The notes beneath the pieces are model-generated. The model did no database searches and had not been told where the DNA came from. It worked only from the letters and a program-made list of their open reading frames with translations. Below, piece after piece: positions 106 to 5,380 of a stretch of DNA of 5,380 bases; within the stretch, counting starts at the first letter, position 1; each line of letters begins with the position of its first letter. The position numbers were made by a program, and so were the translations under genes. The stretch lies in IMG/VR virus record IMGVR_UViG_2667527898_000018. The stretch is one strand, 5' to 3'. Source of the stretch: a virus. Taxonomy: Duplodnaviria > Heunggongvirae > Uroviricota > Caudoviricetes.

Positions 106-339
106 TTATGCAGCCGATGCTCTACGCGATACGAACACTAGGTTTTCCTTTTTCACAGGTTTATAACCCGTGAAATTACGAGTAGCTTCTTCGATTGCAT
201 TCGCTTTATCAGGGGAAGCTCTTCGAAATCCATATGCAATCTGGTCAAGATAGCCAACTGAAGTTTTCGCTAATGCGGCGAGTCGCTTCCATTCCTCGCT
301 AGAAGCCTCTTTTCGCCAGCGTAGTAGTTCATTACTCAT
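106..339 (-). CDS. cro: Cro/YdaS-like small HTH DNA-binding protein (77 aa), in the cro position
   Basis: 77-aa ORF divergent from the cI-like repressor across a 113-bp operator region. RBS GGAGG (complement of 345-349) sits 5 nt before the ATG. The product has an HTH-like segment (LAALAKTSVGYLDQIAYGF) followed by RRASPDKANAIEEAT, typical of Cro/YdaS-type regulators. Call rests on position plus family pattern. Confidence 0.7.
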   Translation of the reverse strand: MSNELLRWRKEASSEEWKRLAALAKTSVGYLDQIAYGFRRASPDKANAIEEATRNFTGYKPVKKENLVFVSRRASAA

Positions 340-452: not shown

Positions 453-1157
453 ATGGAAAACAAAGATATTCGCAAATCGAATCTGGCGTTTTTGCTAGAT
501 GAGCATAAAAAAATCGCGGGTAACACTAATGCAAGCTTTGCCGATAAGCTTGGGGTTAGCCCTTCTCAACTCACGCAAGTCTCCGGTGAAAAAAGCACTC
601 GAAACATAGGGGATAAACTAGCAAGAAAATTTGAAGCCGCGCTTGGGTTACCTAATGGGTGGCTTGATTTGGTACATGATGTAACACCAATTGCATCATT
701 CTCAGATTCTTTAACTTTTGTCGGTCAGGTAAGAAAAGGGTTAGTGCGCGTGGTTGGTGAGGCAATTCTTGGTGTTGATGGTGCCATCGAGATGACCGAA
801 GAGCGCGATGGGTGGCTCAAAATTTATAGCGATGATCCAGATGCCTTTGGTCTTCGTGTGAAAGGAGACAGCATGTGGCCCAGAATAAAATCAGGAGAAT
901 ATGTACTCATTGAGCCTAACACCAAAGTATTCCCGGGTGATGAGGTGTTTGTCAGAACCGTTGAAGGACACAACATGATTAAGGTTCTTGGCTATGACAG
1001 AGATGGAGAATACCAATTTACAAGCATTAACCAGGATCACAGGCCTATAACGTTGCCTTATCATCAAGTAGCAAAGGTGGAGTATGTAGCTGGTATTCTG
1101 AAGCAATCTCGCCATCTGGATGACATCGAGGCAAGGGAGTGGCTGAAAAGTTCGTGA
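453..1157 (+). CDS. cI: Phage CI/LexA-type repressor with C-terminal S24 peptidase (autocleavage) domain, 234 aa
   Basis: N-terminal HTH (NASFADKLGVSPSQLTQVSG); C-terminal S24 signature with catalytic Ser in GDSMWP and a downstream Lys (NMIKVLG). Divergent from the cro-like gene across an operator-rich spacer. Confidence 0.9.
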   Translation: MENKDIRKSNLAFLLDEHKKIAGNTNASFADKLGVSPSQLTQVSGEKSTRNIGDKLARKFEAALGLPNGWLDLVHDVTPIASFSDSLTFVGQVRKGLVRVVGEAILGVDGAIEMTEERDGWLKIYSDDPDAFGLRVKGDSMWPRIKSGEYVLIEPNTKVFPGDEVFVRTVEGHNMIKVLGYDRDGEYQFTSINQDHRPITLPYHQVAKVEYVAGILKQSRHLDDIEAREWLKSS

Positions 1158-1293: not shown

Positions 1294-1581
1294 ATGAAGG
1301 TCTTAAACGTAGAGAAGCTTCACAGTTTTAGCCAGAAGCACAATCAGGCCAAGGGGGCTTTAGACTCTTGGTATGATGAAGTGATAAGAGAAAACTGGAA
1401 AACGACTCAAGACATACGGAATAGATTTAATTCTGCCGACTTCCTTCCTAACAACAGGGTAATTTTTAATATAAAAGGCAATAACTATCGGCTCGTTGTC
1501 CAAGTTGTTTACCAGGCAGGAATGGTCATAGTTGAAAGAGTTGGAACTCATGCAGAGTACGACAAGTGGAGGCTTAAATGA
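1294..1581 (+). CDS. higB: HigB-family type II toxin (RelE/ParE superfamily mRNA interferase), 95 aa
   Basis: C-terminal region FNIKGNNYRLVVQVVYQAGMVIVERVGTHAEYDK matches the recalled HigB pattern (E. coli HigB: FNVGGNELRVV...REVMTHKEYD). Toxin-first gene order is typical of higBA. Stop overlaps the next start in ATGA (1578-1581). Confidence 0.85.
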   Translation: MKVLNVEKLHSFSQKHNQAKGALDSWYDEVIRENWKTTQDIRNRFNSADFLPNNRVIFNIKGNNYRLVVQVVYQAGMVIVERVGTHAEYDKWRLK

Positions 1582-2234
1582 ATCGAACTAGCTGGCGCAT
1601 CATTAAAAATAGTGAAGAGCATGCTGCAGCTATGGAAAGGCTCATTGAACTTGCGTCTAGTGATTTACAACCTGGAACTGAAGATTTTGATGAGTTTGAA
1701 CTACTAGGCTTGCTTATCGAGCACTATGAGTCACGCGAGTTCCCTATGGACAAGCCAGATCCCATAGAAGCAATCAAGTTCCGTATGGATCAACAAGGCC
1801 TCTCTTATGCCGATATGAAACAATACATTGGCTCAGCATCTAAAGTATCTGAGGTCTTAAATCGTAAGCGTCCATTAAGTCTTTCAATGATCCGTAGACT
1901 ACATGACGGACTTGGAATTCCTGCAGATATCTTAATTCAAGATATGAGCGCAATTGAATGGAGCCTAGTTGACGCAGAGGAAGAAGAAACAGCCATGACT
2001 AGCGTCATTGCTCGGTGTGAGTCAGCCGTCACATCACCTTCTGCTTATTTCGCTGAAAAGGCTACAGAATCTTACTTTTCAAAAATGTTGTTCAGCGCAG
2101 TAAGGGGTAACGGCAAATGCAAAGAAAAACGGAATGTTTTTTCTTTGATAAGTAACTTGTCATCAAGTTTCACAGCGGCTAGCAACCTGAATGACGAAAT
2201 GACTTCTGACGGAAATTACTTATTATTACCATGA
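1578..2234 (+). CDS. higA: HigA-family HTH antitoxin with ~96-aa C-terminal extension (candidate chaperone-addiction segment), 218 aa
   Basis: Residues ~67-122 (KFRMDQQGLSYADMKQYIGSASKVSEVLNRKRPLSLSMIRRLHDGLGIPADILIQ) match the HigA HTH as recalled from E. coli HigA (…MDQYGLTLSDLPEIGSKSMVSRVLSGKRKLTLEHAKKLATRFGISPALFID, which ends there). This ORF continues ~96 residues further. Start overlaps the higB stop (ATGA) and its stop overlaps the next start (ATGA, 2231-2234). Confidence 0.85.
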   Translation: MNRTSWRIIKNSEEHAAAMERLIELASSDLQPGTEDFDEFELLGLLIEHYESREFPMDKPDPIEAIKFRMDQQGLSYADMKQYIGSASKVSEVLNRKRPLSLSMIRRLHDGLGIPADILIQDMSAIEWSLVDAEEEETAMTSVIARCESAVTSPSAYFAEKATESYFSKMLFSAVRGNGKCKEKRNVFSLISNLSSSFTAASNLNDEMTSDGNYLLLP

Positions 2235-2635
2235 AAATTGAACTCATTAGCAAAAAAGTTGAACGCTTGGTTATGACACGGCTAGAAGGCGATTCAACAG
2301 CAAAAAAATCCATAAAAACAACCGTTAATCTAAATAATGAACTTTACACTAATGTGAAGGATTCAAAGCTATTTAGAGTGAGATATTTTGCCTCCGTAAC
2401 TATTGAAGGCAGGCTTGAGATGGACATCACATACGACTTTGACTTCCGGTCAGAAGATGATTTTTCTCATGAAATGGCAAAATCATATGAGGTAAGGTCC
2501 ATTGCTCCCAATATGGCATATCCCTATATAAAAACATATGCCGAGCAAATTATCCTCATGTCAAACCTTGGTAGGTTCACTCTGCCTTATTTTGATTTCT
2601 TGGCCAATCCCATGGAAACGAACAGTAATAAGTGA
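2231..2635 (+). CDS. SecB-like chaperone (candidate TAC chaperone), 134 aa
   Basis: C-terminal region SIAPNMAYPYIKTYAEQIILMSNLGRFTLPYFDF aligns with the recalled E. coli SecB segment [33 protein letters not shown] (PN..PY, (R/K), L.P, (N/D)F). Size is close to SecB (155 aa). Translationally coupled to the extended higA. Confidence 0.7.
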   Translation: MKIELISKKVERLVMTRLEGDSTAKKSIKTTVNLNNELYTNVKDSKLFRVRYFASVTIEGRLEMDITYDFDFRSEDDFSHEMAKSYEVRSIAPNMAYPYIKTYAEQIILMSNLGRFTLPYFDFLANPMETNSNK

Positions 2636-2772: not shown

Positions 2773-2893
2773 CTTTATTTATCCTGTCGAATTCCTACAA
2801 CAAAATAAAACACCATAAGAATCAATACGATATTTGAAAACCAAGAGAATTTATCATTTTGCTATTGCCATTAATTTATCATTCCGATAAAGT
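2773..2893 (+). promoter_or_regulatory. OL/PL-like operator-promoter region for the early-left operon
   Basis: ATTTATC core at 2777-2783, 2849-2855 and 2874-2880. The 15-mer AATTTATCATTTTGC (2848-2862) is 14/15 identical to the OR copy at 400-414. Palindrome TTTATC-ATTCC-GATAAA at 2875-2891. Candidate PL: -35 TTGCCA (2865-2870), 17-bp spacer, -10 TAAAGT (2888-2893), the same -10 hexamer and spacing as the candidate cro promoter. Confidence 0.5.
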
Positions 2894-2961
2894 TCACCCA
2901 TCAGCAGGACGCACTACTCACCAGGGCGGTGAATATACAACGATTCGAATATGAATCTACG

Positions 2962-3141: not shown

Positions 3142-3525
3142 ATGACACGCAGAACTCAGTTCAAAGGCAATTCACGTTCTCGTCGTCGTGAGCGTTTAAA
3201 GGTAAAGGCATTAGCTAACGGCGTACTGGCCCGCGAAGAAGCAATAAGTTCAGAAGTATTACACCGCCCTACTCTAAGCAGAGCGCAGATTCAGGCTAAA
3301 GGTACTCACGAAACGCCTGAGCGCATAGAAGACGCTAAGCCAGTTAAGTTCATGGCACAGGACGTGATCTGGCAGCAGAAAGAATACAGACGCAATCTGG
3401 AGCGAGCGACCATTGTGTACGCGAATGAGTTTGGACATAAGCAACCAGAAACTGGTGTATGTCTTCCAAACGTAGCCATTTACGCTGCAGGCTACCGGAA
3501 ATCAAAACAACTGACAGCAAGATGA
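3142..3525 (+). CDS. N: N-family transcription antitermination protein (P22 gene 24-like), 127 aa
   Basis: N-terminal arginine-rich motif GNSRSRRRERLKVKA resembles the P22 N motif GNAKTRRHERRRKLAIER. C-terminus …NVAIYAAGYRKSKQLTAR resembles the recalled P22 N C-terminus (…VALYAAGHRKSKQITAR). Strong RBS AGGAGG at 3131-3136; first gene after OL/PL and the boxB hairpin. Confidence 0.8.
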   Translation: MTRRTQFKGNSRSRRRERLKVKALANGVLAREEAISSEVLHRPTLSRAQIQAKGTHETPERIEDAKPVKFMAQDVIWQQKEYRRNLERATIVYANEFGHKQPETGVCLPNVAIYAAGYRKSKQLTAR

Positions 3526-3586
3526 CTTGTGTTGGTCGCCAGAAAATGAGATTAGGCAGCAAACCACTTATTTGAGAGGAATTAAT

Positions 3587-4210
3587 ATGTCATCAATCCG
3601 CTTAACTACGAGAATGAAAGAGGAAATCGCTCGTAACGCTTTAATTAAGTCTGGGGTTTTCACTGAACTTGAAGAAGTAACAAAGTTAAAGAACCAGCTT
3701 GCACTTGACGCCAGAGTTATTGCGTTTGGCGGTAAAAAGAAAACTGAGGAAGTGGATCAGTTATCATCCAAGTTGGTAGCTATAAGTGAAGAACTTGAAA
3801 AGATGGGATGTTCATTTTACTCATACGATGTTAGTTCTACTTCAATTTATCTGACTGTATCTGGCAGAAGGGTTGGATGGCATTCATATGGGAAAGACGG
3901 CAACGGCAAAGATATATTGCTCCCTACTCCGACCAAAGATAAATGCATGTTTGACGCAGAGCACGAAATAACAAAAAGGTTTGATGAAATCTGCGCATTG
4001 CAACAAAAACTTGAAGCCAAGAAAAAGGATATCGAATCAAATGTATGGGCTGCTTTAAACTCAGTCACAACAGTTAAGCGACTTATTGAAGTTTGGCCTG
4101 AAAGCAAAGAATTGCTACCAAAAGAAGCAGATAAAGCAAGTACAGCACTTCCTGCTTTACGGGTAAAAGATTTGAATAAAATGATTGGACTTCCTTCCGA
4201 GGCCGCATAG
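3587..4210 (+). CDS. Hypothetical protein, 207 aa (early-left operon accessory gene)
   Basis: ORF track gives 3527-4210, but the ATG at 3587 has an RBS GAGAGGA (3574-3580) with ~6-nt spacing, so 3587 is the likelier start. Hydrophilic, Lys/Glu-rich, no family recognised. Its stop codon TAG (4208-4210) sits in the loop of a terminator hairpin. Confidence 0.6.
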   Translation: MSSIRLTTRMKEEIARNALIKSGVFTELEEVTKLKNQLALDARVIAFGGKKKTEEVDQLSSKLVAISEELEKMGCSFYSYDVSSTSIYLTVSGRRVGWHSYGKDGNGKDILLPTPTKDKCMFDAEHEITKRFDEICALQQKLEAKKKDIESNVWAALNSVTTVKRLIEVWPESKELLPKEADKASTALPALRVKDLNKMIGLPSEAA

Positions 4211-4226
4211 TCGGCCTTTATTTTTG
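4199..4226 (+). terminator. Rho-independent terminator overlapping the stop codon of the 207-aa gene
   Basis: Stem AGGCCG (4200-4205) / CGGCCT (4212-4217), loop CATAGT containing the TAG stop, followed by TTATTTTTG (4218-4226). Confidence 0.6.
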
Positions 4227-4282: not shown

Positions 4283-4344
4283 GGAGCAATGTCGCTCGTA
4301 ACTAAACAGGAGCCGACTTGTTCTGATTATTGGAAATCTTCTTT

Positions 4345-4371
4345 GCCCTCCAGTGTGAGGGCGATTTTTTA
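4345..4371 (+). terminator. Rho-independent terminator-like hairpin upstream of the 122-aa gene
   Basis: Stem GCCCTC (4345-4350) / GAGGGC (4357-4362), loop CAGTGT, followed by GATTTTTTAT (4363-4372). Confidence 0.65.
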
Positions 4372-4390: not shown

Positions 4391-4759
4391 ATGTCAAACA
4401 TCAAAAAATACATCATTGATTACGACTGGAAAGCATCAATAGAAATTGAAATCGACCATGACGTAATGACAGAGGAAAAACTTCACCAGATTAATAATTT
4501 CTGGTCAGACTCTGAATACCGACTCAATAAACACGGCGCTGTATTAAATGCTGTATTAATCATGCTGGCGCAACATGCTCTGCTTATAGCAATTTCGCAA
4601 GACTTAAATGCATATGGTGTTGTTTGTGAGTTCGACTGGGATGATGGAAATGGTCAGGAAGGATGGCCTCCAATGGATGGTAGTGAAGGAATAAGAATTA
4701 CCGATATCGATACATCAGGAATATTTGATTCAGATGATATGACTATCAAAGCCGCCTGA
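4391..4759 (+). CDS. Hypothetical acidic protein, 122 aa
   Basis: Clean ORF with RBS-like GAGGA (4377-4381) upstream. C-terminal half is strongly acidic (CEFDWDDGNGQEGWPPMDGSEGIRITDIDTSGIFDSDDMTIKAA). No family recognised with confidence. A weak hairpin AAAGCCGC/GCGGCTTT (4748-4769) spans its stop codon. Confidence 0.6.
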   Translation: MSNIKKYIIDYDWKASIEIEIDHDVMTEEKLHQINNFWSDSEYRLNKHGAVLNAVLIMLAQHALLIAISQDLNAYGVVCEFDWDDGNGQEGWPPMDGSEGIRITDIDTSGIFDSDDMTIKAA

Positions 4760-4834
4760 GCGCGGCTTTACCGCATACCAATAATGCTTCACGAGAGGCA
4801 TTTTCGTTATGCAATCAAATATAAGGAGTTACCC

Positions 4835-4969
4835 ATGATGCACTTTCAGCTCGCGGGTAGCGGCGTCATGTCCGCTTTCTACCCGCACGAATCTGAATTA
4901 TCACGCCGAGTTAAACAATTAATCAGAGCAGCAAAGAAACAACTGGAGGCGTTATGCGCAATGAAATAG
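4835..4969 (+). CDS. cIII: CIII-like small protein (candidate FtsH inhibitor), 44 aa
   Basis: RBS AAGGAG (4823-4828) 6 nt before the ATG at 4835; the longer track ORF from 4784 has no RBS. MMHFQLAGSGVMSAFYPHESELSRRVKQLIRAAKKQL resembles recalled lambda CIII MQYAIAGWPVAGCPSESLLERITRKLRDGWKRL (M-x-aromatic-x-I/L-A-G, then P-x-E-S-x-L-x-R in an amphipathic helix). Confidence 0.6.
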   Translation: MMHFQLAGSGVMSAFYPHESELSRRVKQLIRAAKKQLEALCAMK

Positions 4970-5106
4970 CCATTAATCACCAGATGCTTCGTGCTGCACA
5001 GAACAAAGCAGTAATAGCCCGATTTATTGGTGATTCAAAAATGTGGCTTGAAGCAAATAAAGCGATGAAATCAGCTATCAACCTTCCGTGGTATCGCAGG
5101 AAATGA
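4954..5106 (+). CDS. kil: Kil-like small protein (candidate host cell-division inhibitor), 50 aa; absent from the ORF track
   Basis: My translation from the ATG at 4954 is MRNEIAINHQMLRAAQNKAVIARFIGDSKMWLEANKAMKSAINLPWYRRK. RBS GGAGG at 4945-4949. It overlaps the 3' end of the cIII-like gene by 16 nt in another frame, as cIII and kil overlap in lambda. IARFIGDSKMWLEA resembles the recalled lambda Kil segment IATFIGDEKMFREA. Confidence 0.5.
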   Translation: MRNEIAINHQMLRAAQNKAVIARFIGDSKMWLEANKAMKSAINLPWYRRK

Positions 5107-5178
5107 GTTTTACAGATAACTGGTCAGACGAAGAATTCATTCGTCAGATGAAAGAATTAATCGGTAACGAAGGATGAG
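5104..5178 (+). pseudogene. Possible 5' remnant of an early-left gene truncated by the IS insertion (24 codons)
   Basis: ATG at 5104 overlaps the kil-like stop in ATGA. The frame (MSFTDNWSDEEFIRQMKELIGNEG) runs to a TGA at 5176-5178 that coincides with the first bases of the putative IS terminal inverted repeat. No RBS judgement possible; could equally be a genuine micro-ORF or noise. Confidence 0.25.
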
Positions 5179-5380
5179 GTGTACTGGCAATAGCGGACAC
5201 TACCATTTGTTCTTTTTTTAAGTAGCTATCTGATGATATTTTTCCCTGAAGGCTGCCGGGGAGATATTCCCCAGACGAGAGTGACGACGCTGACGATTGT
5301 AGAAAATCTCAATGTATTCCCGTATTACTGAGATGGCTTCATCCCGGTTATTAAAACGATAGTAGCTCAGGCTCTCATAT
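5176..5380 (-). mobile_element. IS3-family insertion sequence, terminal inverted repeat and 3' end, continuing beyond the window
   Basis: Plus strand from 5176 reads TGAGGTGTACTGGCAATAGCGGACAC, resembling the recalled IS3 terminal repeat pattern TGATCTTACCCAGCAATAGTGGACAC. The adjacent minus-strand ORF encodes a typical IS3-family OrfB C-terminus. Boundary is approximate (about 5 bp either way). Confidence 0.7.
5218..5380 (-). CDS. IS3-family transposase OrfB, C-terminal 53 codons (partial; 5' part lies beyond the window)
   Basis: My minus-strand translation is …YESLSYYRFNNRDEAISVIREYIEIFYNRQRRHSRLGNISPAAFREKYHQIAT*, with the FYN..RRHS.LG..SP..F motif of the IS3-family integrase-core C-terminus. 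Stop codon is the complement of 5218-5220. Not in the ORF track because it runs off the window. Confidence 0.8.
   Translation of the reverse strand, partial: YESLSYYRFNNRDEAISVIREYIEIFYNRQRRHSRLGNISPAAFREKYHQIAT

Follow-up and report, generated by a model that had tools for sequence, protein, structure and literature searches.

The window analysed here, the whole 5,380-nt stretch of a Caudoviricetes virus record (IMGVR_UViG_2667527898_000018), carries two small overlapping genes on its plus strand. The upstream gene, cIII (4835..4969), has as its 44-aa product MMHFQLAGSGVMSAFYPHESELSRRVKQLIRAAKKQLEALCAMK, as established by sequence reading and the ORF listing, and this product is predicted to be an FtsH protease inhibitor of the HK022 class that favours lysogeny. 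The downstream gene, kil (4954..5106), encodes the 50-aa peptide MRNEIAINHQMLRAAQNKAVIARFIGDSKMWLEANKAMKSAINLPWYRRK, with ARFIGDSKMWLEA within it, and is predicted to yield a helix-turn-helix hairpin that blocks FtsZ-ring assembly. The genes overlap by 16 nt and are read in different frames, since their start coordinates leave 2 and 1, respectively, modulo 3. Each possesses its own Shine-Dalgarno motif, read from the sequence: AAGGAG at 4823..4828 (+), 6 nt before the ATG at 4835, and GGAGG at 4945..4949 (+), which falls within cIII itself, 4 nt ahead of the ATG at 4954. The record of phage HK022 (X16093.1) annotates putative ribosome binding sites at the places equivalent to both. A preliminary description of this DNA had proposed the two ORFs, their 16-nt overlap in different frames and the presence of ARFIGDSKMWLEA in the second product, all of which were borne out by the ORF listing and the translation. 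It had also remarked that the kil-like ORF was missing from the ORF track on account of a size cutoff. Indeed, the default 60-aa cutoff lists only a 61-aa version of the first ORF (4784..4969), so the missing kil is a cutoff artefact devoid of biological meaning.

Both products are 100% identical to proteins of HK022 (CAA34220 for CIII and CAA34219 for Kil), which its 1989 record annotates as "cIII gene product (AA 1-44)" and "kil gene product (AA 1-50)". The source of these HK022 genes is Oberto, Weisberg and Gottesman (1989), as cited in Kobiler et al. (2007; PMC1838920). The same CIII and Kil proteins are carried by HK97, H-19B, HK446 and HK106. At the DNA level, the HK022 locus is about 98% identical to the window, with a few silent nucleotide differences in the gene pair, and it shares the 16-nt overlap, the ribosome binding sites and the small gene that follows. 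It differs in its upstream neighbour, which is nun in HK022, whereas N and the genes for an Nmad5 and a DUF2528 protein stand upstream in the window; moreover, the gene after kil is cut by IS600 only in the latter. A megablast search of positions 4700..5380 against phage records returned mEpX2, HK446, H-19B, HK97 and HK022 at 97.6-99.6% identity, with the matches extending up to position 5174.

The CIII product matched all 37 positions of the Pfam cIII model PF08134 (E=2e-30), scoring 104.7 bits where the cutoff is 25, and also matched PHROG 550 ("CIII"; E=2.6e-13). The preliminary description had likened it to lambda CIII, which is right in kind and loose in detail, because Kobiler et al. (2007; PMC1838920) distinguished two classes of CIII proteins, that of lambda and that of HK022, the latter including the CIII of HK022, which is identical in HK97 and H-19B. 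The protein is thus a CIII, but not of the lambda class: with Pfam Lambda_CIII PF02061 its 12.4 bits (E=0.17) fall short of the 25.7-bit cutoff, and BLASTP did not align it with lambda CIII. Lambda CIII itself (NP_040620) is 54 aa long and belongs to PF02061, in contrast to the 44 aa and PF08134 of the window protein. On these sequence criteria, the window CIII belongs to the HK022 class. MAFFT alignments placed its identity to lambda CIII at 27-32%, the common motifs being A-G near the N-terminus and ES-L-R----L----K in the centre.

A central amphipathic alpha-helix is present in the HK022-class protein. The maximal hydrophobic moment over 18 residues was 0.718, at residues 21-38 (ELSRRVKQLIRAAKKQLE), compared with 0.387+/-0.093 for shuffled CIII sequences, none of which (0/2000) equalled the observed value, and the moment of lambda CIII peaks at the same residues. 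The AlphaFold2 model contained a helix at residues 17-42, with a mean pLDDT of 94-97 over residues 21-40; the models of CIII and Kil were both obtained from the single sequence, without an alignment. In lambda CIII, residues 14-37 form the region essential for activity (PMC1838920). A sequence search of solved structures with CIII produced only a chance match to the GCN4 coiled coil (E=0.99). At the RNA level, scanning the complete window with Rfam (E<=1) produced three matches, all weak and unrelated; the lambda cIII thermoregulator was not among them, and folding of the cIII translation-initiation region (4805-4885) was like that of shuffled sequences (z=-0.68). Since both analyses were null, there is no evidence for a lambda-style RNA control of cIII.

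The second ORF was called Kil-like in the preliminary description, and this assignment was firmly upheld. In addition to the identity with HK022 Kil, the product matched the complete Pfam Lambda_Kil profile PF06301 (positions 1-31 of 31; E=1.7e-20, 72.6 bits against a cutoff of 27.6) and, over its full length, PHROG 2055 ("Kil protein for bacterial septation inhibition"; E=1.2e-35). BLASTP aligned it with lambda Kil at 17/30 identities (57% over 30 aa; E=3e-9), the shared residues following the pattern Q-L-A-Q-K--IA-FIGD-KM--EA--A-K. In the AlphaFold2 model (mean pLDDT 86.3), Kil adopts a two-helix hairpin with helices at residues 2-25 and 28-42, and with G26-D27 between them. Naha et al. (2025; PMC11762379) predicted a comparable hairpin for lambda Kil, with a first helix spanning aa 4-18, a turn at G19-D20 and a second helix spanning aa 21-38, which they named a helix-turn-helix, and deletion of either helix or of the turn abolished its activity (PMC11762379). 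The G26-D27 pair of the window protein aligns with G19-D20 of lambda and is invariant across lambda and three diverged phages. Residues common to all five aligned Kil proteins are M1, L12, A14, Q16, K18, I21, A22, G26, D27, M30, A34, K39 and R48. A sequence search of solved structures with Kil found no relative.

The termini of the window Kil depart from the lambda pattern. Nearly all lambda Kil homologues are reported to carry a C-terminal polar RSK/RSSK motif that is considered important (PMC11762379); in the subfamily to which the window protein belongs, PWYRR(K/R/P) or PWYRKS stands in its place. The window Kil itself ends in PWYRRK, with R48 (within YRRK) at the aligned RSK/RSSK position, this end being basic but of a different motif, and it carries 7 extra N-terminal residues relative to lambda Kil. 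Lambda Kil (NP_040619) is 47 aa long and ends in RSSKSIH, and what it shares with the 50-aa window protein is a helix-turn-helix core of 30 aa that contains FIGD-KM-EA as well as the G-D turn. Judged from sequence, PWYRRK in place of RSK/RSSK and the additional N-terminal residues would count against a full lambda-like Kil function. The literature searched yielded no paper with a direct test of an HK022-type Kil.

Lambda was also said in the preliminary description to have the same gene order and overlap. The order holds: lambda cIII (33299..33463) and kil (33187..33330) lie on the same strand, cIII then kil, in the pL operon downstream of N, and they do overlap. The extent of the overlap does not, as it is 32 nt in lambda (33299..33330) versus 16 nt in the window. 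Beyond kil, lambda continues with gam-bet-exo and not with arf-like and erf-type genes. A further parallel is the PL operon of P22, in which c3, kil (20-nt overlap) and arf form the same run of overlapping micro-genes, with erf after them; intact relatives of the window prophage share this c3-kil-arf layout followed by an Erf-type recombinase. P22 C3 nevertheless belongs to the lambda class and not to the HK022 class, and P22 Kil is 62 aa long. Alignment to the known CIII and Kil families, which the preliminary description had suggested as a check, gave full identity with HK022 for both products and about 32% identity between P22 Kil and the window Kil in a gapped alignment, along with scores above the Pfam cIII and Lambda_Kil cutoffs.

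Two intact ORFs and an overlap between them were also observed in diverged phages of Cronobacter and Enterobacter and of the faecal virome (Flyfo), at 62-68% protein identity. Cronobacter phage ENT47670 contains a lambda-class CIII ORF (43 aa) and a 51-aa Kil ORF, the latter 62-63% identical to the window Kil, which overlap by 22 nt. Enterobacter phage vB_Ecl_MII_001 possesses an HK022-class CIII (68% identical) that overlaps a 48-aa Kil by 16 nt, with an arf-like ORF after kil, and in the faecal-virome phage Flyfo Tbat2_3 the overlap is 28 nt. With lambda included, the arrangement is thus conserved while the length of the overlap drifts between 16 and 32 nt.

Immediately downstream of kil is a truncated third micro-gene (5103..5177, +), in which PHROG search and alignment recognised the initial 24 codons of the gene for an arf-like protein of 56 aa (HK022p38 / mEpX2_036). 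The start codon of this ORF overlaps the kil stop codon (ATGA), and its own TGA stop is supplied by the end of an IS600 element. The 24 residues are identical to the first 24 aa of mEpX2_036. They matched PHROG 2123 ("recombinase"; E=4.3e-17, profile positions 1-24 of 52) and, weakly, phrog_2445 (Arf; E=0.03). The sequence SDEEFI is shared with P22 Arf, and the two proteins have little in common beyond it. This ORF adjoins kil and is cut by IS600, and there is no recombinase gene inside the window.

Homology to phage ends at position 5174, and IS600 sequence begins at 5175 (TGAGGTGTACTGGCAATAGCGG...). The stretch 5175..5380 (-) comprises the end of this IS3-family element with the 3' end of its transposase, as assigned by alignment to the annotated IS600 copies of E. 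coli EH031 and O26 RM10386, whose ends match the sequence from 5175 onward apart from a few mismatches. IS600 bounds the cIII-kil unit and is not part of it. E. coli O26 RM10386 has an identically oriented IS600 59 nt further upstream, and in EH031 an IS600 splits erf. The insertions of the window, O26 RM10386 and EH031 are independent events in the same short region, and this may constitute a local insertion hot spot. An exact match to the phage/IS600 junction was not found in a search of one genome per species, nor did any complete E. coli genome contain the junction in one piece. The DNA probably comes from a STEC-like E. coli or from a Shigella.

The remainder of the window is the immunity and pL region of a lambdoid prophage, with the gene order cro-like, cI, HigBA, pL, N, Nmad5, DUF2528, cIII, kil, truncated arf-like gene and IS600. 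The ORF in the cro position (106..339, -) encodes 77 aa and has no Pfam match; its counterpart in EH031 is a "hypothetical protein" in RefSeq. A cI-type repressor with a Peptidase_S24 domain is encoded at 453..1157, followed by a 95-aa HigB toxin (1294..1581) and a 218-aa HigA-like HTH protein (1578..2234). HigB, the unusually long HigA-like protein and an uncharacterised 134-aa ORF make up an overlapping three-gene block (1294..2635) between cI and pL. The HigB/HigA-like block sits in the slot of lambda rexA and rexB and, because of this position, represents possible defence or addiction cargo.

A candidate pL promoter (TTGCCA, 17 nt, TAAAGT; 2865..2893, +) was located by a consensus scan and sequence reading; it is embedded in repeated TTTATCATT / GATAAA motifs (2840..2900) that resemble operator half-sites for cI. 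Its placement matches the lambda and P22 maps, and by analogy it would be the cI-repressed source of the cIII-kil transcript. The N antiterminator gene follows at 3142..3525 (+), supported by matches to Pfam N_peptide PF25694 (E=1.2e-14) and PHROG 271 (E=6e-38). The interval from N to cIII contains hairpins of terminator-like form at 4200-4217 and 4343-4364; like the pL promoter, these terminators are consensus matches only. By the same analogy, N would be needed for read-through to cIII and kil. When the window was searched for boxA (CGCTCTTA, 1 mismatch), matches were no more numerous than expected by chance, and nutL (boxA/boxB) was for this reason not located. The gene for an Nmad5 ("nucleotide modification associated domain 5") protein (3527..4210) begins right after the N stop codon, its likely start being the ATG at 3587, and a DUF2528 gene (4391..4759) occupies the ea10 position in the pL operon. 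Two further hairpins were noted in this interval. One, at 4748..4769 (AAAGCCGC..GCGGCTTT), holds the DUF2528 stop codon in its loop and has no T-run after it; the other, at 4783..4802, lies between the DUF2528 stop and cIII and covers an alternative ATG at 4784. Conceivable roles for the two are those of a processing site, a weak terminator or an mRNA stabiliser.

Taken together, we consider it very probable that the pair represents the cIII and kil genes of an HK022-type lambdoid prophage, situated in the leftward (pL) early operon downstream of N. It is probable, by analogy and with somewhat less assurance for each, that the biochemical activities, i.e. FtsH inhibition by CIII and the FtsZ-ring block by Kil, are as in lambda. 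The analysis itself establishes which genes these are, the families they belong to, their arrangement, the predicted helices and the setting in the operon; both activities, as well as the transcription logic, are carried over from work on lambda, P22 and HK629. Toxicity upon derepression, which the preliminary description had proposed for both products, would likewise be expected from the lambda studies (PMC1838920, PMC3961180, PMC11762379). In a lysogen, the cI repressor would hold pL off and thereby keep cIII and kil silent. After infection or induction, N-modified RNA polymerase would pass the intervening terminators, and cIII, kil and the next small gene would be transcribed on one message, the first two as delayed-early genes by analogy with lambda and P22. 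Because the kil start falls at the beginning of the last 16 nt of cIII and the ATG of the third gene shares the kil stop (ATGA), translation of the three is probably coupled.

Lambda CIII acts as a competitive inhibitor and substrate of FtsH that prevents CII binding; it stabilises CII and sigma-32 and is bacteriostatic when overproduced (Kobiler et al., 2007; PMC1838920). Through its central amphipathic helix, the window CIII would likewise be expected to serve as a competitive inhibitor and substrate of this membrane protease, in which case CII would be protected and lysogeny favoured. Given that the protein falls below the Lambda_CIII cutoff and is not aligned by BLASTP, the transfer of the FtsH mechanism draws on the short shared central motif and on the older literature. 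Lambda Kil acts through ZipA to block the assembly of FtsZ, and it causes filamentation (Haeusser et al., 2014; PMC3961180); ZipA is also needed for Kil', a related peptide of HK629 (PMC11762379). The two-helix hairpin of the window Kil, with its Gly-Asp turn, would accordingly be expected to break up FtsZ rings in a ZipA-dependent manner and to cause transient filamentation.

Several other readings of the locus were weighed. The presence of IS600 directly downstream of the pair, where it cuts the next gene after codon 24, together with IS600 insertions and pseudogenes in the same operon of the related O26 and EH031 prophages (a partial N, a split erf, an internal stop), could suggest that cIII and kil survive in a defective prophage only as decaying remnants that have lost their expression or function. 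We regard this as very unlikely: both ORFs are intact and encode the same proteins as in HK022 and HK97, which are viable phages, the ribosome binding sites of the pair are preserved, as are N, cI and the pL-like region in the window, and the insertion lies downstream of the pair, leaving transcription into cIII-kil uninterrupted. A different possibility, which starts from the same disrupted background, is that an intact, cI-controlled cIII-kil unit has been retained in the IS600-disrupted prophage for the benefit of the host, or that this Kil subfamily, with its PWYRRK tail and 7 extra N-terminal residues, acts somewhat differently from lambda Kil on the divisome. We hold this to be unlikely, as none of the results speaks for either idea; if the first were true, the pair could provide its host with an SOS-inducible cell-division brake and an FtsH modulator. 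Similar host roles have been proposed for kilR of the Rac prophage and dicB of Qin.

The extent of the first gene deserves comment, because its frame is open from the ATG at 4784 and phage mEpX2 (JQ182726.1) has a 186-nt CIII gene annotated, so that translation could be thought to yield a 61-aa protein in place of the 44-aa CIII. Translation from 4784 is nonetheless highly improbable, and this start was rejected: it has no Shine-Dalgarno motif, in contrast to the AAGGAG standing 6 nt before 4835, its ATG is covered by the hairpin at 4783-4802, and the HK022 record and RefSeq (a 135-nt CDS) use the short form. The Pfam cIII model, furthermore, begins at residue 2 of the 44-aa form, and the homologue in the Enterobacter phage has poor similarity to the 17 extra residues. 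That the two frames are open merely by chance and lack a coding function would be a natural concern for ORFs this short in a window with 57 ORFs of 30 aa or more, the majority of which are spurious. This reading was also rejected, its probability being negligible in view of the family E-values (2e-30 and 1.7e-20), the 100% identity to named genes of HK022 and the conservation of both ORFs, with conservative substitutions, in distant relatives. The reading of the locus as an HK022-type cIII-kil pair is therefore retained.

The pair is already known, being composed of textbook lambdoid early genes that were sequenced in HK022 in 1989 and are named in public records. As an exact protein-level copy of HK022 cIII and kil, it belongs to the ordinary content of a prophage and does not amount to a discovery. 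It is also widespread: tblastn searches of phage records found the window Kil in 65 and the window CIII in 26, and the 272-nt cIII-kil module was present in 785 of 5426 complete E. coli genomes, with nucleotide identity reaching 100% in several. The practical value of the locus lies in annotation, since kil escapes ORF callers that apply a 60-aa cutoff. In these genomes, RefSeq gives kil its name, even though no NCBIfam model matched CIII, Kil, the third ORF or the DUF2528 protein, and leaves the HK022-class cIII as a "hypothetical protein"; the ENT47670 record annotates neither gene, though both ORFs are intact. In addition, the HK022-type Kil would offer a cheap natural variant for mapping the Kil residues that contact FtsZ or ZipA.

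It is also worth recording that a mosaic joint coincides with the gene boundary at position 4952. The 99% identity of Shigella phage Sf6 to the window begins only at 4952, the kil start, and the gene upstream of kil in Sf6 is a different one. The Kil type of the window is found paired with an HK022-class CIII in some phages and with a lambda-class CIII in others.
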